From sequence record NZ_CP023779.1: 64,000 bases of DNA; one strand, written 5' to 3'. Position 1 is the first letter of the stretch, and every line of letters begins with the position of its first letter. Both the position numbers and the translations under genes were made by a program. The notes under the pieces are model-generated. The model was given only the letters and a program-made list of their open reading frames with translations, was not told where the DNA came from and made no database searches. This DNA comes from a plasmid. This document shows positions 8,526 to 21,091 of this stretch, one piece after another.

Positions 8526-8803
8526 AGTTAGGTCACCCTAAGATTCACAATGGTGGAAGAGGTGTGTCCTCGGATTGGTGCTCTGGGGTGGTTCTTCGGT
8601 GAGCTCTCGCTGGTTTGAGGATTGATGGGTTACGCGGACATGAGAACTGCTCGGATCGCTTCACGCTCGCAATAGGGGCTTGCATGATCGGTTACCGTGG
8701 ATGCATTGCCCGCTTGTCGGACGGGGTGATCCGCCCGGCTGGGACCGCCGTCGACCGCCCGGCGGGCGTTGGGAACCGCTAGGTGAGCGAGAGGACTTGA
8801 GAG
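8526..8803. promoter_or_regulatory. Divergent promoter region between traA and the 8804 gene; candidate oriT location
   Basis: Non-coding 278 bp adjacent to the relaxase gene; contains GC palindromic pieces (CCGCCCGGC repeats) and a GGGAACCGCTAGGT motif; no nic site can be assigned by eye. Confidence 0.25.
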
Positions 8804-9319
8804 ATGGCAGACAAGAAGCCGGTGGCCGGTGCGGTGGGTGCGCGGAAACTCGCTCGCGAGAAGATGGCCGCCGCGATGGAGGCCCGTCGCAAACGCGAGG
8901 AGGCGAACACCAAGGATCTCGAAGCGTTCTATGTCCTGCTGAGCAAGGTTGACGCGGCGGCGTCCAAGCGGGACGCGGCCATTGCAGCGGCGAACGCTGC
9001 CTACGCTGCTGCCGAGACGGCCTTGCTCGATGAACAGGGCGCGGCGCTGCGCAGCATCCGTGACCGCAACACTCCGCAAGCTGAGCTGCTGGAAATGACC
9101 GGGCTTTCGCCCGGCGAGCTTCAGAAGTTGCTCAAGCGCTCCGCTCCGGCGGCCAAGTCGGCTCCGGCGGCCCCTGCGGCCGAGGCGGCCTCGTCGAACG
9201 TCACGCCGATTGGTGGCCGCGCGGCCGAGGCGACTCCGGCGGCGGCCGAGGTGAGTTCCGATGCCGGGGCCACGGAGCGGGAAGCGCTAGGCGAGTCGTC
9301 GCCGGTGTCGGCGTCGTAG
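8804..9319 (+). CDS. Hypothetical Ala-rich small protein
   Basis: RBS GAGAGG upstream of ATG; high GC3; lysine-rich N-terminus then Ala-rich helix. Confidence 0.5.
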   Translation: MADKKPVAGAVGARKLAREKMAAAMEARRKREEANTKDLEAFYVLLSKVDAAASKRDAAIAAANAAYAAAETALLDEQGAALRSIRDRNTPQAELLEMTGLSPGELQKLLKRSAPAAKSAPAAPAAEAASSNVTPIGGRAAEATPAAAEVSSDAGATEREALGESSPVSAS

Positions 9320-9323
9320 CCCA

Positions 9324-9914
9324 ATGGCGCGGGACTCGGGGCCGGGAAGACTGCCCCGCAATGCGCCTCAACGGCTCGAGGTCGGGGACGTAGCCGAGAT
9401 CGGGCGGTTCGAGGCCAAGGTGGTCCGCGGGCCCGGGCCCGATGACTGCTGGATATGGACCGGAGCAATCGGTGACGACGGGTATGGACGTTTCGCGATC
9501 CGGCGGGATGTTCGTGGCCGGTTTCCCCGGCGGCCCGAGGATGGTCGCGAGGTGATGGTGCGGCCTCCCCGTTATGCGGTGGCGTTGTACGTCGGGACCG
9601 TTCCGGCGGGGCTCTACGCCTTGCATGACCGATGCGACAACCCGATATGTGTCCGGGCCGCTGAGGTAGACGGTCGCCGGCCTCACGTGGTCCTCGGGAC
9701 TCAGCAAGAGAATCTGACGACCATGGGCGCTCGCGGCCGCTCGTACGGCGGTCGGCCGATATGGCAGCACGACGGGCTGACCCGTGCGCAACGAGTCGCC
9801 CGGTCGCGGGCCCTGCGGTTGGCGGTGCGCGGTGGGTGGGATGCCGAGGCCGTGCGCCGCGCGATGCTGATCGGCTCGCAACCGGCGCTGTTCGATCCGG
9901 TCGAGGATTCGTGA
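9324..9914 (+). CDS. HNH endonuclease
   Basis: CWIWTGA...DGYGRF...HDRCDNPICV matches the HNH_3 family signature. Confidence 0.7.
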   Translation: MARDSGPGRLPRNAPQRLEVGDVAEIGRFEAKVVRGPGPDDCWIWTGAIGDDGYGRFAIRRDVRGRFPRRPEDGREVMVRPPRYAVALYVGTVPAGLYALHDRCDNPICVRAAEVDGRRPHVVLGTQQENLTTMGARGRSYGGRPIWQHDGLTRAQRVARSRALRLAVRGGWDAEAVRRAMLIGSQPALFDPVEDS

Positions 9915-10008
9915 GCGGCGTCTGTCGGCAACCGCTAGGCCGCTGGATACAACTGATGTGATGATTTATCACGCCTGTGCGCGTGCACCGAGACGGGAAG
10001 GGGGCGGT

Positions 10009-10342
10009 CGTGCTGATGGTCGTTGGTGTGCTCGCGCTGGGTGCGTCGCTGCTCGGTGCGGCGGTGCTGCTGGCGCTGATTCTGTGGAAGTGGGGGGCCG
10101 GGCTCGCGCGGGTGCTGGGTCTGTTCCTGATTCTGAGCAATCTCTATCGGCTGATGTTGGCCGTGTTCGTGCCGTGGGTGCTGGGCTCCGCGGCGCTGTG
10201 GCTGGCGGTCGGTGTCCTGCTCTGGTTGTTCGGGCACTGGGTGCACATCGTGCGTTATCGTCGGGCCCGTTCGCCCCTCGCACAGCGCGTTTTCGCCCTG
10301 CCGGGCCTGCGCGCCCTGGTGCCGTCTGCGGCCCGGCCTTAG
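10009..10342 (+). CDS. Small integral membrane protein (3 TM predicted)
   Basis: GTG start with RBS GGGAAGGGGG; very hydrophobic VVLMVVGVLALGASLLGAAVLLALIL... Confidence 0.5.
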
Positions 10343-10539
10343 CGCCTCGCACCGGCCGGGCGCAGGGTGGCGTCGCCTTCGTGTGCATTCCTCGCATCGC
10401 GGGCGACTCGGATAGTGCGAGATGGGCTCGCACTCTGGTTCGCACTGTCCCGCACTGGTCGCCGGTGCGAGGTCCGGAGTGATGGTGCGAGAGTGCGGCG
10501 GCAAGCGCTAGCCGGGACAGCCCGCATCGCGCTTTCGCG

Positions 10540-10785
10540 TCATGGGCATTGGCACGCTCCGTCTCGTAGCCAGCCGCATTCGGGGCACGGCGTGTCGAGC
10601 GTGAGCGGCTCGCCGGATGCGAGCCATTGATCGGTTGTGCGCCTCGGGGTTTTGACTTTCGGCGGTGTCGGGGCGTCCACCGCGATGATTCGTTGAGTGT
10701 CGCCTCGCCGGTGTGCGGCGGCGGCGAGATGGTCGAGCGCGGTGATAGGCGTCGGAATCGACGGCGGGTGCTCGGTCGCGGACAT
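10540..10785 (-). CDS. Small Cys-containing (zinc-ribbon-like) protein
   Basis: ATG with RBS GAGGAG; C-terminal CPECGW...CQCP. Confidence 0.5.
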   Translation of the reverse strand: MSATEHPPSIPTPITALDHLAAAAHRRGDTQRIIAVDAPTPPKVKTPRRTTDQWLASGEPLTLDTPCPECGWLRDGACQCP

Positions 10786-10944
10786 GTTGGGGGCTCCTCG
10801 GTGCGGCGGTGGGTGAGTTGCCCCGGGGCGGTCGTGCGCCGGGCCGGGCCGTCCACCCCGATAGAGCGGAGCGTGGGTGGACGGTGCGGCGCGGCGGGCG
10901 GCAGGGTGCGCGGGTGGCTCGGCTGCCGCTGTAGCGAGGTCGTG

Positions 10945-11292
10945 CTACCGGCTGACGGGCTCGACGTAGAGCACGTGGGTGGCACCATCGTGCCCGTGGA
11001 TGTCGATCAGGTCCGGCACTGAGTCGAAATCGGTTGTCGAACTGGGCTTGCCGGGGACACACCATCGGATCGTGGCCCGGCCGTCCGGCCACTCGACGCC
11101 GTTGGCCACGATTCCGACGCCGGAGTACCCGGTGAGATCTTTGGTGCGATACAGGACGAATACCCGTACGTCGGTGGTGATGACGGTCGGCGTCTCCGCG
11201 CGCGGGTCGGCGATGGTGCGGCGGGAGTGGCCGGTTTTCGCTGTCGCCGTGGTCGGCTCGCCGGGCCTGTACGCGGTGGCGTTATCCGGCAC
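10945..11292 (-). CDS. Hypothetical protein
   Basis: GTG start overlaps upstream stop (GTGCCGGATAA); high GC3. Confidence 0.45.
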   Translation of the reverse strand: MPDNATAYRPGEPTTATAKTGHSRRTIADPRAETPTVITTDVRVFVLYRTKDLTGYSGVGIVANGVEWPDGRATIRWCVPGKPSSTTDFDSVPDLIDIHGHDGATHVLYVEPVSR

Positions 11293-11725
11293 GGCGGGCC
11301 TCCTGGGCCGGGGCGGGCGGCAGCACGATGAGGTCATCGGCGCGTACGTCGCGCGGCACCGGGACACCCCACGGGTTGTCTTCGATGTCGACCTCGTACC
11401 AGGGTCCGGCGCGCTCAATGTCGACGCCGAGCGGGTGCACCTCGTTTCGCACGGTGCCGTGCAGGATGCCGAGCGGCTCGCCGTAGCTGGTGAATGCGGC
11501 ATTGAGCCAGAGCACGCGGTCGCCGGGCTTGAGCGGATCGCACGGTTCGCCGGGCGCCACAGGCGCGGCCTGTAGCAGGGCCGTAGCAGCCTCTAGGGCG
11601 CGATTCCAGCGTTCGCCGGCCTCGGCTTCCCCCTCAGCTGTGGGCCCGTCTACGGCGCGTGTGTAGGCGGCGGCGGCCGCCGCGAGCTCGGCGGCGACGA
11701 GATGACGGTTTGCGGGGCTGGTCAT
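11282..11725 (-). CDS. Hypothetical protein
   Basis: ATG at 11725 (MTSPANRHL...); the longer N-terminal extension is Pro/Arg-rich and was rejected. Confidence 0.5.
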   Translation of the reverse strand: MTSPANRHLVAAELAAAAAAYTRAVDGPTAEGEAEAGERWNRALEAATALLQAAPVAPGEPCDPLKPGDRVLWLNAAFTSYGEPLGILHGTVRNEVHPLGVDIERAGPWYEVDIEDNPWGVPVPRDVRADDLIVLPPAPAQEARRAG

Positions 11726-11757
11726 GGCGGGGCTCCTGGGGCTCGGGGTCGGGCGGG

Positions 11758-12159
11758 TCATGCCGCGGCGGCGGGGTCGGGGCCGGGGGCTCCGGCGGGG
11801 ATGTAGGGGATTTGGCCGAGGACGACGGTCTTCGTCTCGGTCGTCCATGGCACGGTTGCGTTGTGGCGGTCGGCCCAGTGCTGGGCGTCGGCGGGGTCGG
11901 CGAATGCGGCTTTGACTTCCTGCGGAGTGTCGGAGGAATCGAGGTCGTTGCTGTCGCGTTCGATGGCTTCGATGCCGACCAGGTGGACGACGGCCGGACC
12001 GCGCAGTGCTTCGGCGGCGAGTTCGGCGAGTTCGGCCAGCGCGAGGGCTGCCTCGTGCTCATCGGTGCCCGCGAGTCCTTCGACGGCGGCCTCGCGCAAC
12101 TCCGCGACGGCGGCGCGAAGGTCGGCGGCGAGCTTGTGCGCGGTGCGGGTGGTGGTCAT
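11758..12159 (-). CDS. Hypothetical protein
   Basis: ATG at 12159 preceded by CAGGAG RBS. Confidence 0.5.
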   Translation of the reverse strand: MTTTRTAHKLAADLRAAVAELREAAVEGLAGTDEHEAALALAELAELAAEALRGPAVVHLVGIEAIERDSNDLDSSDTPQEVKAAFADPADAQHWADRHNATVPWTTETKTVVLGQIPYIPAGAPGPDPAAAA

Positions 12160-12188
12160 GCTTTGCTCCTGAATGGCGAGTCGGGGTG

Positions 12189-12419
12189 TCATGCGGCAGG
12201 GTCGGCCATCGCTGTGATGCGGTCGGGCCGGAATCCTGACCAGTGATCCGACCCGGCGACGACGACGGGCGCGGTCAGATAGCCAAGGCTGAGAACGAAC
12301 TCGCGGGCCTCCGGCTGTTCGGTGATATCAATGGCCGTGAATTCGATGCCCGCTTTGTCGAGTGCTCGATACGTGGCCGTGCATTGCACGCAACCCGGTT
12401 TCGTGTAAACGGTGACGTT
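12189..12419 (-). CDS. nrdH: NrdH-like glutaredoxin
   Basis: VNVTVYTKPGCVQCTATYRALDKAGIEFTAIDI...APVVVAGSDHWSGFRPDRI is very close to NrdH redoxins (CVQC active site, WSGFRP motif); GTG start with GAGGGG RBS. Confidence 0.75.
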   Translation of the reverse strand, partial: NVTVYTKPGCVQCTATYRALDKAGIEFTAIDITEQPEAREFVLSLGYLTAPVVVAGSDHWSGFRPDRITAMADPAA

Positions 12420-12549
12420 CACAATTCCCCTCCGCTCATCATTCCCCTTTTCCTGGTTAATTCTAACAATGCTGGCAGCGTCGAACAATGAATGTCGAAT
12501 AATTTCCGCAGAGTAATTCACAAGCGGGTTGCTGCCGTAACTTCTGTAA

Positions 12550-13236
12550 TTACGAAATGGCGTTAGAGTGCCGCTGGCGGTGTAGTTCGGTGCGCCGAAA
12601 CCGGCCGAATTCTGCGGAATTCCACCGTCTCGGAATGGTGAAACGAGTATCCGGGAGAGTGCTGCCAACGGATGTCAGTAATTCTCGGATTATTTCTGTA
12701 CTACGCAATCCCGGCGGCTCGGGAAACAACTCGCTCATATCGGCGCTGTCGGCGACGGCGCAAATGGCCTGCGAGAGCGGGAGCGCGCCCCGCCGGGTGG
12801 TCGCGTAGGTGCCTTCGAGGGGGCCGAACGTTCGGCCGTGCAGGTCGATCGGCGGCTCGACGTGAAGTGTGTAGGCGGCGCTCCAGTCGATTTCGCTGCC
12901 GGTGCGGGGCACGATGAGCGGGTACCGGCGTTCGAGCGCGTCGGCCACGATGCCGTAGCCGTTCGGGCTTATTTCGCGGGTGCTGAGCACGCCGTGAATG
13001 CCGTAGATGACGGGCCCGCGGGCGTCGTTGCCTGTTCCCATCGCCTCGTATCGGCGGGCCAGCTCGCGCACGGCGGCGTCGGGCGGGCCGTCCGTCCAGC
13101 CGACCATTACCCAGTTCCGCCACTCGGCGCGGCCGCCGCGCACGATGAACCGGACACCGGGCCAGCGGTCGGCGAGTTCGGCGCGGATGCGCCGGGTCAC
13201 CTCCCGCGCCCCGAGGATCCGCACCGGCGGTGTCAT
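12550..13236 (-). CDS. Hypothetical protein
   Basis: ATG at 13236 overlaps upstream stop (ATGA); the Arg-rich 160-aa N-terminal extension in the ORF track was rejected. Confidence 0.55.
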   Translation of the reverse strand: MTPPVRILGAREVTRRIRAELADRWPGVRFIVRGGRAEWRNWVMVGWTDGPPDAAVRELARRYEAMGTGNDARGPVIYGIHGVLSTREISPNGYGIVADALERRYPLIVPRTGSEIDWSAAYTLHVEPPIDLHGRTFGPLEGTYATTRRGALPLSQAICAVADSADMSELFPEPPGLRSTEIIRELLTSVGSTLPDTRFTIPRRWNSAEFGRFRRTELHRQRHSNAIS

Positions 13237-13676
13237 CGCGCGCCCCCGGCGGTTGTCGTCAGCACCGGCCCGGCGGCGGCGTCGATCTTGCTGCGGTATC
13301 CGGCGACGCTGCGGCGCGGTTCGACGGCCTCGGCGTCGTCGATGAGCTTGCGCGCCCGGTCGAGTTCTCGGGCCTTGTATGCCTTTCCGGCGGCCTTGAC
13401 CAGGCGGTCCCACTCTTCGGCGCGGGCCTGCGCGGCACGCTTGCGCTCGGCCGGGCTGCGGTGCAGTACCTCGGGGTGCTGGCGCAGGTAGGCGGCCACG
13501 GCGTCGGCGACCGGGCCCAGACCGTAGGCGGCCTGAAGGGTGCGCAAGTGTCCCTCGGTCACGTAGCGCGCGGCGTCGTCGACGCCGAAGGCGAACGGTC
13601 CGCCGTAGTACTGGGCGGCGAAGTCGTCGGCGGCGTACTCGATGAGCTTGCCCTCGACCGGGGTGAATTCGGTCAT
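13233..13676 (-). CDS. Hypothetical protein
   Basis: ATG with AAAGGA RBS about 40 nt downstream of operator pair (a). Confidence 0.55.
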   Translation of the reverse strand: MTEFTPVEGKLIEYAADDFAAQYYGGPFAFGVDDAARYVTEGHLRTLQAAYGLGPVADAVAAYLRQHPEVLHRSPAERKRAAQARAEEWDRLVKAAGKAYKARELDRARKLIDDAEAVEPRRSVAGYRSKIDAAAGPVLTTTAGGAR

Positions 13677-13709
13677 CGGAGATACATCCTTTCGGTCGAT
13701 AAGTCAGTA

Positions 13710-13737
13710 CCATAGTACTATGTCACCATAGTACTAC
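13710..13737. promoter_or_regulatory. Operator pair (a): CATAGTACTATG then 4 nt then CATAGTACTACG
   Basis: Perfect 12-bp palindrome plus near-copy, 35-65 nt upstream of the 13676 start codon. Confidence 0.6.
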
Positions 13738-13809
13738 GAGTAGGATAAGATCACCATGGGTGATCGGTGAGAAGGGGATCGGCGCGTATCACCCTCGCGC
13801 CGAGGGGTT

Positions 13810-14127
13810 TCAGTCTTCGGCTGCGGCGCGCTTCTTGTCCGCTATCTGCTGGTGCGTTACGACGCGCACCGCTCCGGCCTTGACCGGCTGCCACGGCTGG
13901 CCGCCGTTCTTCTCGCGCTCCAGGTTTTCGACATCGGCCAAGATGATGCTTTTGAGGTAGTCGGAGAACGATCCGGTGTGGTCCTGGAGCCAACCGAATT
14001 GGTAGGCGGCTCGCACCCGGTCGGCTTCGTCGGGGTCGAAGTATGCGCCGATGCGGCCCTTGTTCATGGTGGCGCTCTTGGTGTTCTTGGCAGCTTCGCC
14101 GCTGCTGCCCTTCCTCGCTCCCGGCAT
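13810..14127 (-). CDS. Ribbon-helix-helix DNA-binding protein; candidate repressor of the palindrome regulon or ParG-like; an alternative start at 14244 is coupled to the upstream ORF
   Basis: KGRIGAYFDPDEADRVRAAYQFG...SFSDYLKSIILADVENLE gives a clear beta-alpha-alpha RHH pattern; RBS GGAAAGG before the ATG at 14127. Confidence 0.5.
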   Translation of the reverse strand: MPGARKGSSGEAAKNTKSATMNKGRIGAYFDPDEADRVRAAYQFGWLQDHTGSFSDYLKSIILADVENLEREKNGGQPWQPVKAGAVRVVTHQQIADKKRAAAED

Positions 14128-14146
14128 GGCCGCCTTTCCCGCGCTC

Positions 14147-14175
14147 CCGTAGTGCTGTGGTGCCATAGTACGGGC
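14147..14175. promoter_or_regulatory. Degenerate operator pair (b) upstream of the RHH gene
   Basis: CCGTAGTGCTGTG ... GCCATAGTACGGG resembles the CATAGTACTATG pairs with mutations. Confidence 0.35.
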
Positions 14176-14240
14176 TCGACCGGGGCGGGCCGGGCGGTGC
14201 GCCGGCGCGCGGGTCGCGGGCTGTTCGGGCGTGGTGGCGG

Positions 14241-14420
14241 TCATGACGGGGGCTCCTTCGGGGTAGCGGCGGTGCGGCTGGCGGTGGGCAGGAACGGCCC
14301 GAATGCGGCGCGGCAGCGGTCGCACAGTTCGGCATCCGCGGCGGGCCGGGGGCAGATGGCGCAGCGGTCGAGCTGCTGCGCGGTGTACGGGCGGGGTTGG
14401 GTGGCGTGGGCGGTCACCTC
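14241..14420 (-). CDS. Possible small zinc-ribbon protein
   Basis: C-terminal CAICPRP...CDRCRAAF; stop overlaps an in-frame ATG of the RHH ORF (ATGA); the start is unclear. Confidence 0.3.
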   Translation of the reverse strand, partial: EVTAHATQPRPYTAQQLDRCAICPRPAADAELCDRCRAAFGPFLPTASRTAATPKEPPS

Positions 14421-14583: not shown

Positions 14584-15621
14584 CTACTGCTCGTCGCTGC
14601 GCGTGCCGCTGGCGTCGAAATCGACGCGCTGACCGGCGCTGTTGGTGAGGCCGGTGATTTTGTTGATGGGAAGTTTGTTGTTCCATCCGGGCTCGACATC
14701 GAGAGTCACCGTGGTCTTGTTGACCCGTAGCACCGCTTCCGGCCGGGGCCGCGATGACTGCCCGGTGTGCACGTAATCGCCGCGCCGGATCATGGCGGCG
14801 GTGAACACGACGGCACCGGCGGCGCGGGCGGCATCGAGTTGCGCACGCTCGTAGGCGATTTCGTCGGCGCGCTGCGCGATGGCGGCCTCGAGCCGTGCGC
14901 GGTATTCGCCGGTCGCGGGCGGGGTGGCCTGGGTGATCGGGTGGCCGGTCTGGCCGTTGATGCCGAGATTGCGGGTGTAGCCGTCGCGGGCCCGCTCGTC
15001 GGCGCGCTGCTCGGCCTCGAGCCGGGCTATACGCCGCTGGATCACTCCGGGGCATTCCGGGGCGGTCGCGGTGAATTCGGCGGTCTGGGCGCGCTGCTCG
15101 GTCGCGGCAGCCTTCGCCCGAGCCTCGCGGGCCTGCACGCCGGTACGGTCGGCGCACTCGTGCAGCCGTTCGTGACGACGCTGCGAATGATGGCCGATCT
15201 TGATCGGTTCGCCGCCGGGCGGCAAGGACTGGTGCGCGCGATCCGCGGCGGCCTCGGCGGCTGCGGCCTGGCGGTGGTGACGCTCGGCCTTGTCCCGCAA
15301 CGCATCCGCCCGGGCCCGGCGCTGGGCCGCACGGTCGGCGGCGACCTCATCGGCGGCGCGGTGGCGACGGTCGATCCGCACGCTCACGCTGTGACCGGCT
15401 TCGCGCAGCGCCTCGGCCGCACCGGTGATCGCGAGATTGTTCGGCTGGCGGTCGCGGGAATTGCGGACAATCCAGCCGCCCAGGCTGTTCGACCACTTCC
15501 AATAGCGGCGCCCGATGCGCCGCTCGACCGTGCACATGATCTCGTAGGTGCCATCGCCGCGGCAGTCACCCTCGAGCTGGGTGCCTTCGGCGGCGGTGTG
15601 GGTGATGGTCAGTTCGGCCAT
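14584..15621 (-). CDS. DUF3560 domain protein
   Basis: N-terminus MAELTITHTAAEGTQLEGDCRGDGT matches the characteristic DUF3560 start; RBS GGAGG 9 nt upstream; Arg/Ala-rich coiled middle. Confidence 0.7.
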   Translation of the reverse strand: MAELTITHTAAEGTQLEGDCRGDGTYEIMCTVERRIGRRYWKWSNSLGGWIVRNSRDRQPNNLAITGAAEALREAGHSVSVRIDRRHRAADEVAADRAAQRRARADALRDKAERHHRQAAAAEAAADRAHQSLPPGGEPIKIGHHSQRRHERLHECADRTGVQAREARAKAAATEQRAQTAEFTATAPECPGVIQRRIARLEAEQRADERARDGYTRNLGINGQTGHPITQATPPATGEYRARLEAAIAQRADEIAYERAQLDAARAAGAVVFTAAMIRRGDYVHTGQSSRPRPEAVLRVNKTTVTLDVEPGWNNKLPINKITGLTNSAGQRVDFDASGTRSDEQ

Positions 15622-15640
15622 TGTCGCGGTCCTCCTTCGT

Positions 15641-15686
15641 TTGCAGTACCGTAGTACTATGGCTTCATAGTACTGTGGTACTGCAA
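15641..15686. promoter_or_regulatory. 46-bp near-perfect palindrome (c) containing two CATAGTACT(A/G)TG-type sites
   Basis: TTGCAGTACCGTAGTACTATGG-CTT-CATAGTACTGTGGTACTGCAA; 21-bp arms with 2 mismatches, ending ~20 nt upstream of the DUF3560 gene RBS. Confidence 0.6.
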
Positions 15687-15705
15687 GGTTTGCCAAGGGG
15701 CGGTT

Positions 15706-16092
15706 TCAGAATCCGGTGACGTCGGCAGCGTCTTCGATACGCCAGACGCGCACGGACACAGTGACGGGTCTGCGGTTGCGGTCGTCGCCGAAAACCCATG
15801 CCTCGCCGTCGATTCGGCGGCCGGTGTCGACCAGTCCGGCAACCATGGGGCCGTGCAGTCCGCCCGTGTAGACCAGGGTGCCGTCCGCATTCAGGTAGTA
15901 GCTGCCCGTCCCTCGGACGAGATGGAAACCGCCGGGGAAGACGTGACCGATGCGGCGGGGCCCGGCGGGGGTGTCGAGATAGTCGCCCGAGCCCGGGCGG
16001 GTGAATTCGGCGTGCCGCGCGATTCGTTCCAACACCGGCGTGCCTCGGTCGGCTCCGGCGCTGCGGCTGGCGGTGGTCTCGGTGCGGTTCAT
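15706..16092 (-). CDS. Hypothetical protein
   Basis: ATG at 16092 overlaps upstream stop (ATGA); the N-terminal 250 aa of the ORF-track entry are Arg/Pro-rich and were rejected. Confidence 0.55.
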   Translation of the reverse strand: MNRTETTASRSAGADRGTPVLERIARHAEFTRPGSGDYLDTPAGPRRIGHVFPGGFHLVRGTGSYYLNADGTLVYTGGLHGPMVAGLVDTGRRIDGEAWVFGDDRNRRPVTVSVRVWRIEDAADVTGF

Positions 16093-16474
16093 AGCGGATA
16101 GTCCTCCTCGTCGTCGATGTATTCCGGTTCCTCGTCGCGGAACCACTCCGGGTCTCCGGACGGGTATCCGGCGTCGGGTTCGTCGATGAGCTCGTACTCG
16201 AGGGCCCACCGCGGATGAGTGCCCAGCACCGCGCGGGACGTGATCAGGTGCTCGCGAAACGCCTGTTCGGTGTCCCGGCACCCCCGCACGAGCTCGGGAA
16301 CCACTGCGCTGGGACTGATGCCCGAATCGGGAAAGCCATGTCCGGGTTGTTGAAAGCGGCCTCGGCGGCGCGCACGGCGGCCAGCAGCTCGAGCGCGCGG
16401 GCGTGCTCCGGGGACGAGTCGGCCGGATGCGGGTCCGGGTCGGGGGACATCCACGGTGCCGGGATTGAAGGCAT
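16089..16474 (-). CDS. Hypothetical acidic-tail protein, apparently frameshifted (possible pseudogene or sequencing error)
   Basis: Strong RBS AGGAGGAAG before the ATG at 16474 in one frame (MPSIPAPW...AEAAFNNPDMAFP); the C-terminal 80 aa with acidic tail continue in another frame from about 16320 and are ATGA-coupled to the next gene. Confidence 0.3.
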
Positions 16475-16580
16475 GACGCTTCCTCCTGGGGGCGCGGGAC
16501 ACGTCCGCGCGCTTGCGGGGCGGGTGATGACCCGGTGCGCGCGAGGACGCGGACACCCGCGCGCACCGGGGACTGTGGGG

Positions 16581-17015
16581 TTACCGCTCGTAGCGGTCGT
16601 GGACGCGCAGCACGTCGGGGGCCGGGTACTCCAGCAGGGCAGAAAGCACCTGCCGGAATTGGCTGGCACCATTGCCCGCGAAGTTGCCGCCGTGCGCGGT
16701 GCCGGGCCGGCGGTGGATCCGGCCGTCGTCGGTGAGCTCCACCGGCTCGAGGTGGGCCTCCCGTTCGCCGTTGCGCCAAATGCCCGCGCGCCGGACCACC
16801 ACGACCACCGGCGGCGCGTCGTCGCGCACGGGGTTCGCTCGCCACTCGGCGACCGGCACGATGGTGCCGTTCACTCGGGGGTCGGTGGTGTTGAGCACGC
16901 CGACCACGGTTACTCGGTCGTACTTCGCGGTGATCCCGCCGAGTGTGAAATCGGCGTCGGCTTCCGCGGAGCGGTAGACGCTGAGGGTCAGGCCCTTGAT
17001 GTCGCTGGTGGTCAC
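16581..17015 (-). CDS. Hypothetical protein
   Basis: GTG at 17015 with GGAG RBS; the ORF-track ATG at 17045 lies inside the operator and was not preferred. Confidence 0.5.
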   Translation of the reverse strand: MTTSDIKGLTLSVYRSAEADADFTLGGITAKYDRVTVVGVLNTTDPRVNGTIVPVAEWRANPVRDDAPPVVVVVRRAGIWRNGEREAHLEPVELTDDGRIHRRPGTAHGGNFAGNGASQFRQVLSALLEYPAPDVLRVHDRYER

Positions 17016-17041
17016 TTTCTCCGCCTCTCTTCGGTATAACG

Positions 17042-17071
17042 CCATAGTACTATGGTGTCGTAGTACTATGC
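17042..17071. promoter_or_regulatory. Operator pair (d): CCATAGTACTATGG then 3 nt then CGTAGTACTATGC
   Basis: Same palindrome family, immediately upstream of the 16581..17015 operon. Confidence 0.6.
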
Positions 17072-17102
17072 AATGTTGGGCGGTGTGATCGGCGCCACAG
17101 AG

Positions 17103-17414
17103 CTATCGCGCACGGATCCGGTTTGTTCGGCGCTGCTGCTCGGCGTACCGGTCGATCTGGTCACGGTCGACATCGTGAATCGCCAGCTCGCGAATTGCGG
17201 CGGCGCGAGCGCTGGACGGCAGGGCCGCGATGCGCCACAGCTCGGCGACCCATTCCCGTTCGGCCTCGAAATGGCGCTCGGAGTCGGTGACCAGGCAGTA
17301 CCGGGGGCGGTGTTCGTGGTAGTCGCGGCATTCCAGGCTCGCGGCTTCCTCGGGCGTCACGGGCGACAGTCGGGCGTATCGCTGCGGGCAGCGGGTCGTG
17401 GGATCCAGGGACAT
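17103..17414 (-). CDS. Hypothetical protein (three Cys; not a WhiB)
   Basis: ATG with GAGAGGAG RBS; 103 aa. Confidence 0.55.
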   Translation of the reverse strand: MSLDPTTRCPQRYARLSPVTPEEAASLECRDYHEHRPRYCLVTDSERHFEAEREWVAELWRIAALPSSARAAAIRELAIHDVDRDQIDRYAEQQRRTNRIRAR

Positions 17415-17461
17415 CGGGGCATCTCCTCTCGGGGGCGGGCGGGGATCGGCTCGAGCTCCGG

Positions 17462-17504
17462 GGGAGGCGCGCCGGGTAGCTAGCGACTATCCGGCGCGCC
17501 TCCC
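17462..17504. repeat. Intergenic hairpin with a GTAGCTAGCGACTA core (copy 1)
   Basis: 14-bp perfect stem GGGAGGCGCGCCGG / CCGGCGCGCCTCCC around the loop GTAGCTAGCGACTAT; between the DUF932 stop and the next RBS; no U tract. Confidence 0.4.
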
Positions 17505-17516
17505 GCTCTTGCTCGG

Positions 17517-18338
17517 TCAGCCCTTGTACTTGCGCATTTCCTCGGCGAGCACCCACAACGCGCGGTTGAGCTTCACGTTGCCGTCGATGCCGTTGACCGG
17601 CCGGGTCCGGGTGCGCTGGCCCTTGGCGGTGGTGCCACGCACTCCGCCCTTGGTCACCCGCTCCTGTACCCGGTTGAACACGCTCCACATGTCGTCTCCG
17701 GCGTCCTCGACCCGGCGCGGGGTGAGCAGCTGGCGGGCGGCGATCGGGGCCTTCTCTGGTTCGTCGTAGCGCAGCGCAAGGGCCGCCTTGGCGAAGGCGT
17801 GCTGTTCGCCCGTCTCCAGCGGCAGGGCCTTCATGTCGTCGCGTTCGGCCTCGACGAGCTCGAACTGATCGAGCACGGTGTACGCGCCTTCGATCACGTC
17901 GTCGACCACGTTGCCGGAGTGGCGAACTCGGATATCGTCGATCGTTTCGCCGCACACCATGCCGTTGGTGCACACGAATCGGAACATGCCCGCGAGCATC
18001 TGATACGAGCTGGTGCCGTCGTGCGAGTTCAACAGGATGATCTCGTTCGTCTCGTCGGCGCGGATCGCCGTTGCGTGACGCAGCCGGACCATGTGCTTGC
18101 AGAACTCGCGGCGGCTTTCGTCGCGCACCCGGCTTTGCGCCACCGCGAAGGGCTGGAATCCCTCGCGCTGCAAGCCGCGCAGCACGTCGATGGTCGGGAT
18201 GTAGGTGTAGCGCGCGCTGCGGTCCGCGTGCGCCTCGGTCGCGAAGATGCTCGGCGCGACGCGACGGATCGCGTCGTCGGTCAGCGGGTCGTCCGAGCGA
18301 ATCGAAACGGCGTTGCGGATCTTCGATGCCAATGGCAT
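17517..18338 (-). CDS. DUF932 domain protein (phage/plasmid-like, TIGR03299-type)
   Basis: 273 aa with MPLASKI start, NSHDGTSSYQ motif, and a size and pattern typical of DUF932; RBS AAGGGAG. Confidence 0.7.
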   Translation of the reverse strand: MPLASKIRNAVSIRSDDPLTDDAIRRVAPSIFATEAHADRSARYTYIPTIDVLRGLQREGFQPFAVAQSRVRDESRREFCKHMVRLRHATAIRADETNEIILLNSHDGTSSYQMLAGMFRFVCTNGMVCGETIDDIRVRHSGNVVDDVIEGAYTVLDQFELVEAERDDMKALPLETGEQHAFAKAALALRYDEPEKAPIAARQLLTPRRVEDAGDDMWSVFNRVQERVTKGGVRGTTAKGQRTRTRPVNGIDGNVKLNRALWVLAEEMRKYKG

Positions 18339-18389
18339 TGTGGCGACTCCCTTTTCGGTGTGGTTCCGGCGGTCTCTCCGTCGGTAACT

Positions 18390-18419
18390 CCATAGTACTA
18401 TGGAGCCGTAGTACTATGC
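18390..18419. promoter_or_regulatory. Operator pair (e): CCATAGTACTATGG then 3 nt then CGTAGTACTATGC
   Basis: Upstream of a ~50-nt leader conserved with site (f), then the DUF932 gene. Confidence 0.6.
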
Positions 18420-18518
18420 AACTGGTCGGATTGTGATGGCTGCCACAGCAGCCGAGGCCGCGGCGCTCAGCCGGGAAACGGGTGGCCCCGGCGCTCGGGG
18501 CTGTGGGTCGTCGGCGGG

Positions 18519-19071
18519 CTATTCTCGCCTGCCACCGGTGCCGGGCTGGTGGGCTTCCGGGTCGAACAGGGCGGGTTGGATCGGCGGTGTCGCTGCCGAA
18601 GGCTGTGCGGGCCTGCTACGGCTGCGAGCGGGGGCGCGTAAGGCCGGGGTGGTGCCGAACAGTTCGAGTTCGATCGGCGCGGGCGGTGTCTCGGATTCGG
18701 TGAGCCAGAATCGCCGCTTTCCGTGCGCATAGGCGCGGACATCGAGGCTGTACTCGAGGGTCGTCACCACAGGGTCGGCAAGCTCGGTGCGCTCGTAGCG
18801 CAGCGTCCAGGCGCGGCCGCGCGCGATGTCGTCGAGCTCCTCGCCGAGATGGGCACGGCAAACGCAAATCTCCCACGATTCGCGCGTCCCCCACGGGGTG
18901 TAGTCGAGCCGGATCCGGTGGGCTGCACGGACCTTGCACGCGAAACCGGTTCCGCCGGTGCCGGTTTCGGGGTCGGGTGGGGTCGTCCAGACAAAGCGCT
19001 CGCAGGTGGGTACCTGCCAGTTGCTCGTGATCGACCGGCGAGAGATGATCCGCGGCGCGTCGGTGGTCACG
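18519..19071 (-). CDS. Hypothetical Cys-containing protein
   Basis: GTG at 19071 overlaps upstream stop (GTGA); the Arg-rich N-terminal extension was rejected. Confidence 0.5.
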
Positions 19072-19477
19072 AGTAGAGTCCGGCGGCTTCGCGCCGGTCG
19101 GCGCAGGTGCCGCAATAGCCGTCGTATCCCTCGCCGTCGTCCAGGAGTTCGGCGCAATCCGCGGTGGCGCAGTATTCGGGCCACTGCGCGGCTTCGAGGG
19201 CGTTTACTGCGCCGTCGCCGGGCTGGTAGGTCGTCTCGATCGGGTTGCCGTGCTCGTCGGCCGCCTCGGGCAACGCCCATACCTTGCGGAAGCTCGCCGA
19301 TGTCAGTTTCACCGGCACCGGCAGGTCACAGACGTTGGTCAGCTCGACCGATCCGCCGGGCGTCGGATACATCTCCTGCCCGTCGTCGGTGTGCAGGAAC
19401 TTGCGCACGTGGGCCTCGCTGTCGGCCCGGATTACGAGGGTGACGACGGCGTACACGTCAACGGTGTAGGTGTTCAT
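19067..19477 (-). CDS. Hypothetical protein
   Basis: ATG at 19477 with GAAAGGTG RBS. Confidence 0.5.
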   Translation of the reverse strand: MNTYTVDVYAVVTLVIRADSEAHVRKFLHTDDGQEMYPTPGGSVELTNVCDLPVPVKLTSASFRKVWALPEAADEHGNPIETTYQPGDGAVNALEAAQWPEYCATADCAELLDDGEGYDGYCGTCADRREAAGLYS

Positions 19478-19626
19478 TGGGCGCACCTTTCGGGCTGCTG
19501 AATAGGCGCACAGAGCCCCGAACCGGACTCGCCGGCCCCGGGGGGTGTGCGGGGGAGTGGTGGGCCCCGATTCGGGGCCGGGTGGCGGGCCGCGCCGGGT
19601 GGCTCGGCCCGCCGATTCGGGCGAAC

Positions 19627-20217
19627 CTATGCGGTGTTCGTCCCGCGCTGAATCGCCCATGCCTGCGGCAGGTGTCCGGCGCGGGCGAGCGTGTCGAGCC
19701 GCTCGGCCACTCCGGCGGCCTGCGCGTACAGCTCCGCGCGGTCGTCGACATACAGGCCGGTAGCGGCCGCGTCCTTCTCGTTGTCCGGGTCCGCGTAGTA
19801 CTCCGCGGCGCGCTGCTCGGCCTTGCGCAGATAGCTACGGAACTCGGCGAGCAGCGCGTCCGGCTCGGCGGCCGCCGCTAGCTGGTCCTCGGCCTTGATC
19901 AGGGTGTAGCCGAACCAGTCGGCCAACATGTCGAGCACATCGCGCCCGGTCGGCAACGGCGTGGTCTCGGCCTGCTCACGCTCGGCCGTAGCCGCCTGGG
20001 TCTTGCACGTCTCGCAGTGGTTCGGGCATCCGCCGAACGTGCAGTCGAGCCCCTCGAGCCCGTCGAGCGGGTATCCGTCGACGCTGGTCGAATCCAGATG
20101 CCAGCGGCCCTCGTCGAAGTAGAAATAGATCTTGCCGTGGTCTTCGTAGCGATGCCCTTCGGCGTCCTGTTCGGCGGCTGCGGCGGCGTCGGCCTGGGTG
20201 TTTTCGGTGGTTGTCAT
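19627..20217 (-). CDS. Hypothetical acidic protein with CxxC...C motif
   Basis: ATG at 20217 with GGTGAGAGG RBS. Confidence 0.5.
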   Translation of the reverse strand: MTTTENTQADAAAAAEQDAEGHRYEDHGKIYFYFDEGRWHLDSTSVDGYPLDGLEGLDCTFGGCPNHCETCKTQAATAEREQAETTPLPTGRDVLDMLADWFGYTLIKAEDQLAAAAEPDALLAEFRSYLRKAEQRAAEYYADPDNEKDAAATGLYVDDRAELYAQAAGVAERLDTLARAGHLPQAWAIQRGTNTA

Positions 20218-20220
20218 GTC

Positions 20221-20281
20221 GGTGCCTCTCACCTAGAGTTCTGGGGGAGAGGCACCGGGTAGCTAGCGACTACCCGGTGCC
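20221..20281. repeat. Two adjacent hairpins, the second with a GTAGCTAGCGACTA core (copy 2)
   Basis: GGTGCCTCTC...GAGAGGCACC and GGCACCGGGTAG-CTAGCGA-CTACCCGGTGCC; same core as 17462-17504; intergenic inside an operon. Confidence 0.4.
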
Positions 20282-20347
20282 TATCTCGTTGACGGGCTTA
20301 CGAATTCCGGTCGGTGGGTGGTGCGCGCGCCGTGGGCTGCTGCGCCG

Positions 20348-20616
20348 TCACGCGAGGATGGTTGCGGCTGGGCGGCCGTGCTGGTCGACGCCGAGGATCA
20401 TCACCATGTCGGCGGCACTGATTACGCCGTTCTCGAATCGGTTGATGTGGAACGGAATTCGCGACGAACCGATCGGTGCGTACGCCACGGCCTCGCGGGC
20501 GGCGGTGAGCACCTGGGCCACCTCGACGGCCGGGATGGCGTTCTCGACGCTGACCGGGCAGTGGTAGCCCATCGCGGCGGCGGTGTCGGTGACGTCGATC
20601 AGAGCGAAGCTCATCG
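20348..20616 (-). CDS. Hypothetical small protein
   Basis: ATG at 20616 with AAGGGA RBS, downstream of the conserved leader. Confidence 0.5.
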
Positions 20617-20662
20617 AGTTTCCCTTTCGGTGTGGTTCCGGCGGTCTCTCCGTCGGTAACTT

Positions 20663-20691
20663 CATAGTACTATGATACCGTAGTACTATGC
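20663..20691. promoter_or_regulatory. Operator pair (f): CATAGTACTATG then 4 nt then CGTAGTACTATGC
   Basis: Followed by a ~46-nt leader about 95% identical to the leader after site (e). Confidence 0.6.
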
Positions 20692-21074
20692 AAACTCGGT
20701 GATGTGATCTGATACACATCTACCCAGGTCAGCGGCGGTTTCCTTCCTCCTCCAGGCTGCTATGGTGACCGGCTCGCAAACGGTCGATCCGCACCCGACC
20801 GCCGGCGGGGAAGCGGTCGCGTCGGGACACTTCTCGCGAGGCGGGGAATCCCGGTGCCTCCCGGGACAGAGGGCCGAAAACACAAGCGCGACCGTGGTTT
20901 ACGTGGCAAGCCTTCCCGCTGAGGGAAGGCGCGGCAGCCGGGGAACGGGCGCGGGCGGATACCCGGCCCGCGGGTCCTATCGGCCAACCCGCGACCCGTG
21001 CGCGCGGCCGAGTGCACATCGCTGGATGCTCATATCGCAATAGCGGCGCGGCTGAGGCTGCTGCGGGACATAGC

Positions 21075-21091
21075 ATCCATATGGATACTTT
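21075..21091. repeat. 17-bp direct repeat ATCCATATGGATACTTT (copy 1)
   Basis: Identical 17-mer recurs at 21986-22002; contains the palindrome TCCATATGGA. Confidence 0.4.

Follow-up and report, generated by a model that had tools for sequence, protein, structure and literature searches.

What might the series of small genes beside the relaxase gene of this plasmid do, and how might its operons be switched on together? The DNA analysed here (the window, 64,000 nucleotides) is most of a 71-kb conjugative plasmid of Nocardia terpenica, on which we found the genes of a MOBF relaxase and an actinobacterial type IV secretion system (T4SS). Gene calling by codon bias placed 19 small minus-strand genes in an unbroken series from 10540 to 20614, all pointing at the relaxase gene traA, and these form an island of five operons that adjoins traA. 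The same-strand series runs on to 31710, well past the promoter modules described below, for a total of 30 genes. The original prediction had all operons from 8526 onwards reading towards the relaxase, and this holds from about 10.5 kb, the limit given in its own text; three plus-strand genes lie between 8526 and that point. The features, from traA outwards, are as follows.

1335-1715: ssb, downstream of traA
2109-8504, minus strand: traA, MOBF relaxase-helicase of 2131 aa, with its start at 8504 or 8495
8543-8567, plus strand: candidate oriT nic region, a conserved box resembling the nic sites of F and R388
8804-9319, plus strand: Ala-rich protein, 171 aa
9324-9914, plus strand: Cys/His-rich protein, 196 aa
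9977-10342, plus strand: hydrophobic protein, 121 aa
10540-13676, minus strand: operon 5, with genes at 13233-13676, 12550-13224 (LPD29), 12189-12422 (NrdH), 11758-12159, 11282-11725, 10945-11292 and 10540-10785
10796-10940, plus strand only: imperfect hairpin of about 145 nt, with inner 22-nt arms at 10837-10896
13810-14244, minus strand: operon 4, orphan RHH protein of the ParB_C/ParG type (CB_ParB_C, weaker Pfam match); publicly annotated from 14166 (118 aa)
14241-14417, minus strand: operon 4, small Cys-rich zinc-ribbon-like protein (weaker Pfam match)
14584-15621, minus strand: operon 4, DUF3560 protein (Pfam)
15706-17015, minus strand: operon 3, with genes at 16581-17015 (DUF8317-like, phrog_6045), 16089-16304 (acidic, 71 aa) and 15706-16092
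17103-18338, minus strand: operon 2, with DUF932 at 17517-18338, then 17103-17414; a GC-rich hairpin (17462-17504) separates the two
18519-20614, minus strand: operon 1, with genes at 20348-20614 (acidic protein, 88 aa), 19627-20217, 19067-19477 and 18519-19070, and GC-rich hairpins at 20220-20285 and 19584-19613

The traA product matches Pfam TrwC (1e-75) and AAA_30 (1e-57) and is 56-61% identical to MobF of Nocardia plasmids. Pfam agrees with the five families named in the original prediction (DUF3560, DUF932, NrdH, zinc ribbon and RHH), the last two by weaker matches. It identifies glutaredoxin/NrdH at 12189-12422 and LPD29 at 12550-13224, and the operon 5 genes at 10945 and 12550 have PHROG matches of unknown function. 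The DUF932 protein (Pfam 6e-53) is 52.6% identical over 272 aa to an ORF of the F leading region, where it is the last gene before oriT. No anti-defence family was recognised among the window proteins with Pfam or PHROG, and a Pfam search with the three divergent proteins gave no match. An establishment or anti-defence role of the island products is putative. The same architecture was found again in five other Nocardia plasmids or contigs.

Is the island the first DNA to enter a recipient? In MOBF plasmids, transcription of the relaxase gene normally runs away from oriT (PMC3737333), and oriT would here lie in the 300-bp gap upstream of traA, at the nic-like box (8543-8567). Its conserved 15-nt core, ACACACCTCTTCCAC on the traA-sense strand (8553-8567), reads GGTGGAAGAGGTGT followed by GT on the plus strand, and the predicted nick would fall between the two, near 8565/8566. 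Six relatives (L002, L012, L013 from Rhodococcus, L014 from Prescottella, L015 from Amycolatopsis, and L020) carry the box in the same orientation, 50-190 nt upstream of mobF; in L001, a seventh, the distance is 3.3 kb and the box stands ahead of an int-HTH-hyp-mobF operon. It is thus kept in eight plasmids of four genera, always in one orientation. The relatives have no conserved inverted repeat adjoining the box. With the nic strands of F and R388, the box shares the spacing TGC-N5-GT(G/C)T, a short likeness of about seven fixed bases. In both of these control plasmids, the G-rich nic strand is antisense to the relaxase gene; by analogy, the nicked and transferred strand would be the plus strand of the window. 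If so, DNA rightward of the box would be the first to enter the recipient, and the T-strand would be the template for 19 of the 19 island genes, the orientation anticipated for genes read from the incoming strand. In F and R388, the T-strand is likewise the template of the leading-region genes.

The map as a whole resembles that of R388 (IncW, MOBF), in which the relaxase gene and oriT are followed by three divergent genes and then by genes reading back towards oriT; its nic strand is antisense to the relaxase gene, and its leading region also has an annotated DUF3560 gene. The divergent trio of the Nocardia plasmid sits where R388 has stbABC, although its members are not stbABC homologues. 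The 196-aa protein is kept beside mobF in L002 (70%) and in L013 and L014 (about 51%), and divergent trios also occur beside mobF in relatives. The differences from R388 are considerable: the host is an actinobacterium with another T4SS type, most of the genes are unrelated, and the Nocardia island has neither ArdC nor ssb, the latter being included in the R388 leading region. Under the proposed polarity, ssb falls at the lagging end, a placement that counts against our model.

These observations must be weighed against the possibility that the island serves maintenance or accessory functions as a co-regulated set and is not the first-entering DNA, with oriT elsewhere or with the minus strand nicked so that traA and ssb lead. 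The position of ssb downstream of traA, the shortness of the resemblance on which the nic assignment rests and the extension of the same-strand series to 31.7 kb, well beyond the modules, all fit such a reading, and the ArdK targets of R388 have been described as 'stable maintenance' genes (PMC3937220). We nevertheless consider it improbable, given the single orientation of the box upstream of mobF in eight plasmids, the strand assignment in the F and R388 controls, the R388-like map and the orthologue of an F leading-region gene. The conserved nic-like box, the R388-like map and the likeness to the F DUF932 protein support the earlier proposal of a leading region, which would be of the MOBF type, and the recurrence of the island in relatives agrees with this reading.

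How, then, might five operons be expressed together? Each is preceded by one copy of a cassette, TTGCAT-N18-TACTAT, in which two CATAGTACTATG dyads, 16 bp apart from centre to centre, lie over the -35 and -10 hexamers. Pairs of this 12-mer occur at 13711, 15650, 17043, 18391 and 20663. The sequence TAGTACTA occurs 9 times (0.01 expected) and the 9-mer with one mismatch 24 times (1.5 expected), far above chance. Both the 46-bp palindrome and the pairs of 12-bp palindromes noticed earlier are real; they are five copies of one cassette.

20634-20718, minus strand: M1, with dyads at 20663-20674 and 20679-20690, a transcribed hairpin at 20634-20660 and a CRP-like dyad at 20703-20718
18362-18447, minus strand: M2, with dyads at 18391-18402 and 18407-18418, a transcribed hairpin at 18362-18388 and a CRP-like dyad at 18432-18447
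17042-17099, minus strand: M3, TTGCAT-N18-TACTAT, with dyads at 17043-17054 and 17059-17070 and a TGTGA-N6-TCACA-like dyad at 17084-17099
15641-15686, minus strand: M4, the 46-bp palindrome, with dyads at 15650-15661 and 15666-15677 and symmetry reaching into the flanks
13708-13765, minus strand: M5, with dyads at 13711-13722 and 13727-13738 and an upstream dyad, GATCACCATGGGTGATC, at 13749-13765

The 64 kb of the window hold these five copies and no others, and each is followed, after 27-52 nt, by a minus-strand start codon with a ribosome-binding site. About 35 further copies were found in N. africana, N. veterana, N. salmonicida, N. higoensis, N. farcinica, N. rhamnosiphila and Nocardia sp., each facing the same way as the gene downstream of it, in surroundings of 65-80% flanking identity and mosaic gene content. 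L020 has five modules at orthologous positions, among them the counterparts of M4 (at 8586; also at 5492 in L003) and M5 (at 10456). We propose that the cassette is a SigA-type promoter. It counts against this that TTGCAT agrees with the Escherichia coli -35 consensus at only 3 of 6 positions, that M4 and M5 have poorer -35 regions and that a generic promoter scan picked up M4 alone (TTGGCA-N18-TACTAT). Three copies carry the TGTGA-N6-TCACA-like dyad upstream, and two have a short leader hairpin.

It had also been suggested that the paired palindromes may act as Frpo-like promoters on the T-strand, from which host RNA polymerase would transcribe the island before complementary-strand synthesis. 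The palindromes do fold as single-stranded DNA in silico, but only into hairpins of 10-12 bp, or 21 bp at 15641 (M4; arms of 21 nt, a 4-nt loop and 90% complementarity). Plus-strand hairpins form with z values of -2 to -6.3 in four of the five 120-nt windows; because each arm is palindromic, they rebuild a duplex TACTAT beside single-stranded template. In the leader stem next to them, 100% of positions can pair on the plus strand versus 91% on the mRNA strand, and the genes have the required orientation. However, the two arms of these hairpins are the -35 and the -10 dyads, and a duplex holding both boxes at a spacing of 17-18 bp is impossible. The F Frpo, examined by the same scan, gave a 115-bp hairpin across 317 nt (z -5.9), whereas only 84-180 bp of intergenic space is available at four of the five modules. 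Furthermore, each 12-mer is self-complementary, a symmetry that a hairpin does not need, and AGTACT to AGCGCT double changes preserve it within one 12-mer while the partner is still AGTACT, which breaks inter-arm pairing. Inter-arm mismatches are found on either strand. Such symmetry-keeping changes fit a dimeric protein on double-stranded DNA and not a hairpin. No sequence similarity of the modules to the F leading region was found. The palindromes are probably not single-strand promoters, and we regard Frpo-like transcription of the island from them as very improbable indeed. The comparison with F and ColIb-P9 (Frpo/ssi) holds at another level: the island adjoins the candidate oriT, the predicted T-strand is the gene template, the DUF932 orthologue is common to the Nocardia island and F, and ParB-like leading-region proteins are found in the relatives L020 and L012, as YfjB/HerB is in F. 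It fails for the hairpin itself, since that of F (about 320 nt) holds both -35 and -10 in its stem and the modules are short dyads.

Some function at the level of single-stranded DNA is possible, because the predicted T-strand allows better pairing than the mRNA strand in both the leader stem and the hairpin at 10796-10940. Folded as DNA, the latter reaches -62 kcal/mol on the plus strand (z -3.6), against z -0.5 on the minus strand; it is not conserved in L020 and may be a terminator or a single-stranded DNA signal.

Which protein might bind the dyads? The most likely candidate, and probably the repressor of the regulon, is the RHH protein of operon 4. First, it matches PF18064 (CB_ParB_C, 5e-5) and PDB 3no7 (E 0.017), and its AlphaFold model has two helices with pLDDT above 90, for which Foldseek returned 3no7 as the top match (TM 0.75). 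Second, the operator is invariant, as is the predicted DNA-reading beta-strand of the protein (NKGRIG.Y in five homologues). Third, wherever its gene was found, it belonged to an operon driven by a module; such a repressor would accordingly be autoregulated. Against this candidate, the protein belongs to a centromere-binding family.

We also considered that the RHH protein might be a type Ib partition adaptor and the dyad pairs centromere sites, with transcriptional control secondary or absent. In sequence and in fold, it is most similar to the centromere-binding ParB of pCXC100; it matches this protein, ParG and omega in RHH fold and family and in having a disordered N-terminal tail, which in the Nocardia protein is Arg-rich. 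Omega-type proteins, such as omega of pSM19035, act in both transcription repression and segregation. Unlike those systems, however, the Nocardia plasmid has no ParA gene beside the RHH gene (nor have L018 and L020), and Pfam identified no Walker-type ParA among the window proteins of suitable size; a ParA partner may be encoded in the roughly 7 kb of plasmid outside the window. The proposed sites lie exactly over the -35 and -10 hexamers of five dispersed operons and are not clustered as a centromere array upstream of a par operon. We think a partition role of this kind distinctly improbable.

Another repressor might serve the same cassette: the 88-aa product of operon 1, the tandem-HTH protein at 51716-52168 or a CRP/GlxR-type host factor at the upstream dyad. 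The 88-aa gene comes directly behind a module in the window and in seven related loci (L003, L006, L008, L010, L011, L018 and L020), other parts of the window encode HTH regulators, and the TGTGA-N6-TCACA matches in the window (3 of 3) are placed 10 nt upstream of a module -35 hexamer. Yet no DNA-binding fold could be detected in the 88-aa protein, which is acidic (pI 5.0), the HTH protein and its L018 homologue share only 39% identity despite identical operators, and the upstream dyad is centred near -54, a non-canonical position for CRP, and is missing at M4. We consider a different repressor unlikely, while giving it serious weight.

We propose, as a probable though by no means certain interpretation, that the island is a repressor-controlled establishment regulon in the leading region. 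The five operons, each driven by one cassette copy, would be held shut in established cells by a plasmid-encoded dimeric repressor, for which the RHH protein is the likeliest choice. After transfer and complementary-strand synthesis, the recipient would lack this repressor, and the promoters would fire together in a transient burst (zygotic induction, or transcriptional overshoot) that ends once the repressor accumulates. A burst of establishment proteins in the new host, followed by shut-off by the plasmid's own repressor, is the most likely outcome.

This proposed mechanism has analogous precedents in two plasmids. ArdK of R388 is autoregulated and represses five leading-region promoters, with an overshoot after conjugation (PMC3937220); it is an HTH protein, whereas the Nocardia candidate is an RHH protein, and regulator and operators are unrelated. 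In p576 (pLS20 family, clade II; EGeRS2 sequences), the autoregulated RHH protein Reg (Reg576) represses four strong promoters of establishment operons, which are likewise clustered and variable, share one strong promoter with repeated operator motifs and show mosaic gene content between relatives (PMC8708921). Its operators, pairs of directly repeated heptamers (TTATCCC-N2-TTATCCC), flank the promoter, in contrast to the two dyads over -35 and -10, and both its host phylum and its relaxase family are different. The repressor-controlled establishment regulon is an already known kind of system, and the Nocardia island, as interpreted here, is a further case.

How is the island next to traA organised, and how might its genes be controlled? 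The G+C content of the whole window is about 68%, at which raw ORF lists are uninformative, and genes were called with a codon log-odds model trained on long high-GC3 ORFs, with the frame plot as a check. Hypothetical proteins of Nocardia terpenica match two window proteins at 100% identity, and of these two the RHH protein (an orphan ribbon-helix-helix protein) is annotated as plasmid-encoded; because both matches come from a 71,380-bp contig, the window is, judging from them, most of one plasmid.

Features of the window
1335-1715, minus strand: ssb, downstream of traA
2109-8504, minus strand: traA, TrwC relaxase plus AAA_30 helicase, 2131 aa (Pfam)
8804-10342, plus strand: three divergent genes (gene calls)
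10540-31710, minus strand: unbroken co-directional gene run, 19 of its genes inside the span of the original prediction
22396-23532, minus strand: serine resolvase, in the run beyond the island
24359-24799, minus strand: PRiA4_ORF3 protein, in the run beyond the island
30460-31710, minus strand: tyrosine recombinase, in the run beyond the island
50831-51265, minus strand: HTH_3 protein, beside a weak Peptidase_M78/ImmA-like protein (50312-50713)
51716-52168, minus strand: tandem-HTH protein, near the HTH_3/ImmA-like pair
52.9-64 kb (52930-63965): T4SS block, syntenic with that of a Nocardia plasmid; its genes include those for a VirB4-like ATPase and a member of the SCO6880 family

The expectation that every gene between about 10.5 and 20.7 kb lies on the minus strand is borne out by the codon-model calls, which give 19 genes, all on the same strand as traA. 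Pfam confirms the NrdH/glutaredoxin, DUF3560 and DUF932 proteins that had been named there and also an LPD29 domain, and the zinc ribbon and the RHH protein (CB_ParB_C) were recovered through weaker matches. A near-identity DNA search of the island against PLSDB and an Rfam scan of the whole window returned no match. The minus-strand run goes on past the last module (21140-31710), where modules are absent and two large proteins of 708 and 600 aa have no family match. Given the T4SS block, transfer of single-stranded DNA from an oriT is the expected mode; directly upstream of this block lie the HTH_3, ImmA-like and tandem-HTH genes (50312-52168, minus strand), which resemble an ImmR/ImmA-type switch that would act on the transfer genes.

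The 46-bp palindrome singled out in the original prediction, at 15641-15686, is real, with 21-nt arms, a 4-nt loop and 90% complementarity, and it is one of five copies of a paired dyad. The dyad CATAGTACTATG occurs in pairs exactly 16 bp apart at 13711, 15650, 17043, 18391 and 20663 and is otherwise absent from the 64 kb, and TAGTACTA was counted 9 times in the window against 0.01 expected. On the minus strand, a start codon with a ribosome-binding site follows each pair at a distance of 27-52 nt. We refer to the five cassettes as modules M1 (20634-20718), M2 (18362-18447), M3 (17042-17099), M4 (15641-15686) and M5 (13708-13765). Three of the five (M1-M3) have the form TTGCAT-AGTACTAYGG-N3-CATAG-TACTAT-G, in which 18 nt separate a -35-like hexamer from a TANNNT -10 hexamer and each of these promoter elements is covered by a dyad; M4 and M5 match poorly at the -35 position. 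The arrangement TTGCAT-N18-TACTAT fits the actinobacterial TANNNT -10 element and is a putative promoter, and a generic promoter scan of the E. coli type called M4 alone among the modules. A CRP/GlxR-type dyad, TGTGA-N6-TCACA, has only three matches in the window at up to one mismatch (17084-17099, 18432-18447 and 20703-20718), all of them 10 nt upstream of the -35 hexamer of a module and centred near -54; the same dyad is found in most modules of the relatives, which suggests a second regulator, of host or plasmid origin. Two module copies also share the conserved leader GTTACCGACGGAGAGACCGCCGGAACC. GC-rich hairpins follow several genes (10837-10896, 16531-16570, 17462-17504, 19584-19613 and 20220-20285), and with modules in front and these hairpins behind, the island reads as five promoter-to-terminator units.

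Could the palindromes instead be single-strand promoters comparable to Frpo of the F leading region, as had been proposed? The part of that proposal concerning folding in ssDNA stands for short hairpins only, since the plus strand folded as DNA gives stems of 21 bp at M4 (15641-15686) and of 10-12 bp at the other four modules; the part concerning a Frpo-like promoter structure does not stand. First, the module hairpins pair the -35 dyad with the -10 dyad, so that a duplex carrying both boxes at promoter spacing cannot form, and none of the modules shows a long hairpin of the transferred strand (T-strand) with -35 and -10 boxes in its stem. Second, the F T-strand upstream of ssb, folded in the same way as a positive control, gives one imperfect hairpin about 320 nt long (z -5.9). 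A gapless inverted-repeat finder missed this element, and an MFE-based sliding scan for the longest unbranched hairpin was used instead; it gave 115 bp over a 317-nt span for Frpo of F and a median of 21 bp in the island, with no module standing out. The intergenic space is only 84-180 bp at four of the five modules, and no Frpo-like stem was found in the intergenic regions 16300-16585 and 20615-21140. Third, a blastn comparison of the F leading region (52.0-66.5 kb) with 8.5-21.2 kb of the window gave chance-level matches of 14-28 nt, none at a module, and hence no similarity to known Frpo elements. Fourth, each 12-mer is dyad-symmetric on its own, and because a hairpin requires complementarity from arm to arm rather than a palindrome within each arm, this symmetry is surplus to a hairpin. 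In three modules of relatives (L003 5492, L004 2160 and L020 10456), one 12-mer has changed from AGTACT to AGCGCT and kept its own symmetry, with its partner still AGTACT. A count of inter-dyad and intra-dyad complementarity over 28 modules gave about 78% for both and so did not discriminate, two rows being in the wrong register, and only the qualitative AGCGCT cases were used from it; these modules are natural variation useful for studying operator recognition. From the limits of the hairpins, the F control, the intrinsic dyad symmetry, the AGCGCT changes and the lack of similarity to F, we conclude that the palindromes are putative operators for a dimeric protein on double-stranded DNA.

We leave a small residual probability to Frpo-like function, because a module hairpin would rebuild a duplex TACTAT beside a single-stranded template, and because of the 7-bp leader stem CCGRCGG-N5-CCGYCGG, found at 18362-18388 and 20634-20660 and in 14 further copies in related loci (L003-L020). 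This stem is 100% pairable on the template (plus) strand, where the central pair is G.T in 8/13 distinct copies, G-C in three and A-T in two, and it carries an A.C mismatch on the mRNA strand in the same fraction, 8/13; one compensatory change from C-G to T-A was observed. An ssDNA or antisense function of the stem is possible, as is a protein-binding dyad. The Frpo-like hairpin promoter itself fails its defining structural test. A dual use of the modules seems to us very improbable: the 12-mers of the T-strand would pair into a 12-21-bp hairpin acting as an ssDNA promoter, and on double-stranded DNA the same sequence would be an ordinary promoter shut by a repressor. The duplex TACTAT -10 beside a single-stranded template would then resemble a fork-junction or pre-melted promoter, which may be sufficient for the actinobacterial SigA holoenzyme in view of its low dependence on the -35 element, and beside the module hairpin stands a leader stem with perfect pairing on the T-strand only. 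If this is true, high-GC Gram-positive conjugation would have a single-strand promoter of a new, minimal kind. The longest plus-strand hairpin of the island lies elsewhere, at 10796-10940, between two minus-strand genes and about 2.3 kb from the predicted nic; it is imperfect, about 145 nt long, GC-rich and without a -10-like box, with z -3.6 on the plus strand (the predicted T-strand) and z -0.5 on the minus strand. Its role may be that of a terminator or of a signal for single-strand initiation, and it is not conserved in N. rhamnosiphila (L020), where the orthologous spacer holds only two ordinary GC hairpins.

The modules can be followed into other genomes. The paired-dyad pattern, scanned against one genome per species, matched five Nocardia species, and looking up the context of RHH homologues added N. 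farcinica and N. rhamnosiphila as carriers; single-copy matches in two unrelated genomes (L005 and L009) were taken as chance. About 35 further modules were found across the loci of relatives, every one oriented with its downstream gene, in flanking DNA of only 65-80% identity, with genes shuffled from one element to another. The N. rhamnosiphila contig has five modules at orthologous positions, preceding the gene for the 88-aa protein (the first gene of operon 1), DUF932, a DUF8317-like gene, DUF3560 and the 146-aa/LPD29 operon, followed by three divergent genes and traA. In three other Nocardia MOBF plasmids (L001, L012 and L002), an island of small co-directional genes likewise lies upstream, and the repeated AT-rich modules that it carries are different ones.

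Repeated AT-rich modules in Nocardia MOBF plasmids
L001 4962-11262 and L012 8181-14566: modules ahead of co-directional genes upstream of mobF, ATGCGTAAAA...TAGAATAGAG
L002 12567-12603 and 17543-17579: GTTGCATTCATTTTGTACATTTGGTACATTT

The cassette principle thus appears to be general and its sequence specific to each lineage. Because these three plasmids have repeated modules of their own and the loci are mosaic, the clustering of variable operons behind a repeated regulatory cassette is a lineage-wide design.

Which protein might recognise the operators? The only clear DNA-binding protein of the island is the RHH protein (13810-14244), which matches Pfam CB_ParB_C (PF18064; 5e-5) and PDB entry 3no7 (E 0.017). 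Its AlphaFold model has a disordered tail and then two helices with pLDDT above 90, and the best structural match of the model is the RHH domain of pCXC100 ParB (3no7; TM 0.75, rmsd about 2 A). In all elements where the gene is visible, it belongs to a module-driven operon, and the predicted DNA-reading strand of the protein, NKGRIG.Y, is invariant in five homologues that are 59-69% identical overall, paralleling the invariant operator. Both the Pfam match and the fold match give it the DNA-binding fold of a type Ib partition protein, and immediately upstream, where such a system has a Walker-type parA, are DUF3560 and the zinc-ribbon gene; no ParA/CbiA Pfam match was obtained in the window or near the RHH homologues in L018 and L020. 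On this evidence we give the RHH protein about an even chance of being the cassette repressor. Two other products are weaker candidates for that role: the 88-aa protein, encoded by the first gene of operon 1, is acidic and has no recognisable fold, its homologue search returned only itself and its PDB matches were noise; and the tandem-HTH protein (51716-52168) has a homologue in L018 that is only 39% identical, yet the operators are identical.

Is the island placed as a leading region would be? Within the 300-bp gap upstream of traA, at 8543-8567 between traA and the island, is the box ACACACCTCTTGCAC, to which the window copy has one mismatch; this candidate nic is present in one orientation throughout eight plasmids, the window and seven relatives. 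In six of the relatives (L002, L012 and L020 from Nocardia, L013 from Rhodococcus, L014 from Prescottella and L015 from Amycolatopsis), a single copy of the box precedes mobF by 50-190 nt in the same orientation, and the L001 copy is located ahead of an int-HTH-hyp-mobF operon. On the plus strand the box reads G(T/G)GCAAGAGGTGTG, the complement of ACACACCTCTTGCAC being given as GTGCAAGAGGTGTG. The nic strands of F (TGCGTGGGGTGT|GG) and R388 (TGCGTATTGTCT|AT), located in public records, share with it the spacing TGC-N5-GTNT, more narrowly TGC-N5-GT(G/C)T; the window copy has TGG for TGC. Ahead of the relaxase operon, on the strand antisense to the relaxase, there is thus a candidate nic core akin to those of F and R388, as in a MOBF oriT. 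A possible relaxase-binding inverted repeat 5′ of the predicted nic, TTAGG-N4-CCTAA at 8533-8546, is shared with L020 only and is not conserved in L001, L012 or L002. The possibility that the conserved box is a promoter was rejected, as the relatives show no consistent -10 element after it.

Both F and R388 have a nic strand that lies antisense to the relaxase gene, runs 5′-3′ away from that gene and is the template for the leading-region genes. If this polarity holds here, the plus strand of the window would be the T-strand, the island would enter first, and the T-strand would template all 19 genes (19/19), which supports the gene orientation that had been expected of a leading region. This polarity agrees with a published rule by which the relaxase genes of MOBF plasmids are directed away from oriT (PMC3737333) and with the orientation rule for leading-region genes (PMC11541004). 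The island also carries leading-region gene families, namely DUF932, DUF3560 (as in R388) and LPD29. Its DUF932 protein (17517-18338, minus strand), which matches phrog_12094 at 1e-110, is 52.6% identical over 272 aa, full length, to the DUF932 ORF of F (NC_002483 64438-65259), the last F leading-region gene before oriT; such identity is unusually high for actinobacterial and enterobacterial plasmid proteins lacking assigned function. The large ParB-like protein in the islands of L020 and L012 has a counterpart in YfjB/HerB, carried by F (PMC13370423). Against a leading region stand the shortness of the nic resemblance and the position of ssb, which lies outside the island and at the lagging end under the predicted polarity. 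In L006 and L011 (N. salmonicida and Nocardia sp. NPDC058499), an ssb orthologue lies directly beside the module island. On balance, the description of the island as leading-region-like is supported by comparative anatomy, through the nic-like box, the R388-like map and the homologue of the F DUF932 protein.

The resemblance to R388 extends to gene order: trwC-trwB-trwA, oriT and three divergent genes (stbABC) are followed there by genes reading back towards oriT, among them ssb, a DUF3560 protein and ArdC. An assignment of the divergent trio of the window (8804-10342) to StbABC was rejected, there being neither similarity nor a Pfam match. One of these genes encodes a 196-aa Cys/His-rich protein (9324-9914, plus strand; CWIWTG...GYGRF...HDRCDNPICV) whose position directly beside mobF is conserved in plasmids of Nocardia, Rhodococcus and Prescottella, where identities are 50-70%; by eye the protein resembles an HNH protein, but it has no Pfam match, and it may be a relaxosome accessory protein.

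How would such an arrangement work? ArdK of R388 acts as the repressor of five promoters in the leading region, one of them its own, and all five overshoot after conjugation because no repressor accompanies the incoming DNA (PMC3937220). On the Bacillus plasmid p576, variable establishment operons are preceded by four strong promoters that an RHH repressor keeps shut, an arrangement that the authors of that study consider to favour the shuffling of operons between plasmids (PMC8708921). The anatomy of the island matches these two experimentally characterised systems, and we propose the same repressor logic for it: strong promoters would be blocked at both -35 and -10 through cooperative binding to two dyads, and would be de-repressed only in a repressor-free recipient, after complementary-strand synthesis. 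Like these regulons, the island has a repeated regulatory sequence ahead of clustered operons (five modules, with about 35 in relatives), predicted operator dyads over -35 and -10, and a candidate cognate repressor gene (RHH, encoded in operon 4 behind M4). Homology between this RHH candidate and ArdK, an HTH protein, is not expected. The island is, by this anatomical comparison, best described as a probable new actinobacterial example of a repressor-controlled establishment regulon.

As for the products, no match to anti-restriction (Ard), anti-CRISPR (Acr), SOS-inhibitor (Psi) or methyltransferase families was obtained among the island proteins. Seven match phage protein families, six of which lack assigned function, with NrdH falling in a thioredoxin-domain family, and seven island proteins are small and acidic (pI 4.1-5.0). 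From their position and regulation, a putative role in establishment or anti-defence is plausible.

Leading regions and their anti-defence cargo have so far been mapped almost entirely in Proteobacteria and Firmicutes, and the text of a survey published in Nature in 2024 does not mention Actinobacteria. The mechanism proposed here has good precedents, and it extends known principles and overturns none. For T4SS-type conjugation in Nocardiaceae, this analysis provides a candidate oriT/nic box common to MOBF plasmids of Nocardia, Rhodococcus, Prescottella and Amycolatopsis, a promoter-operator cassette that marks putative establishment-regulon genes in at least seven Nocardia species, and a candidate repressor. 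The cassette, as a predicted compact repressible promoter, could serve Nocardia and Rhodococcus genetics. It is also a practical search key, and the genes behind it, which include many small acidic proteins and families common to actinophages, are candidate early-acting or anti-defence factors.
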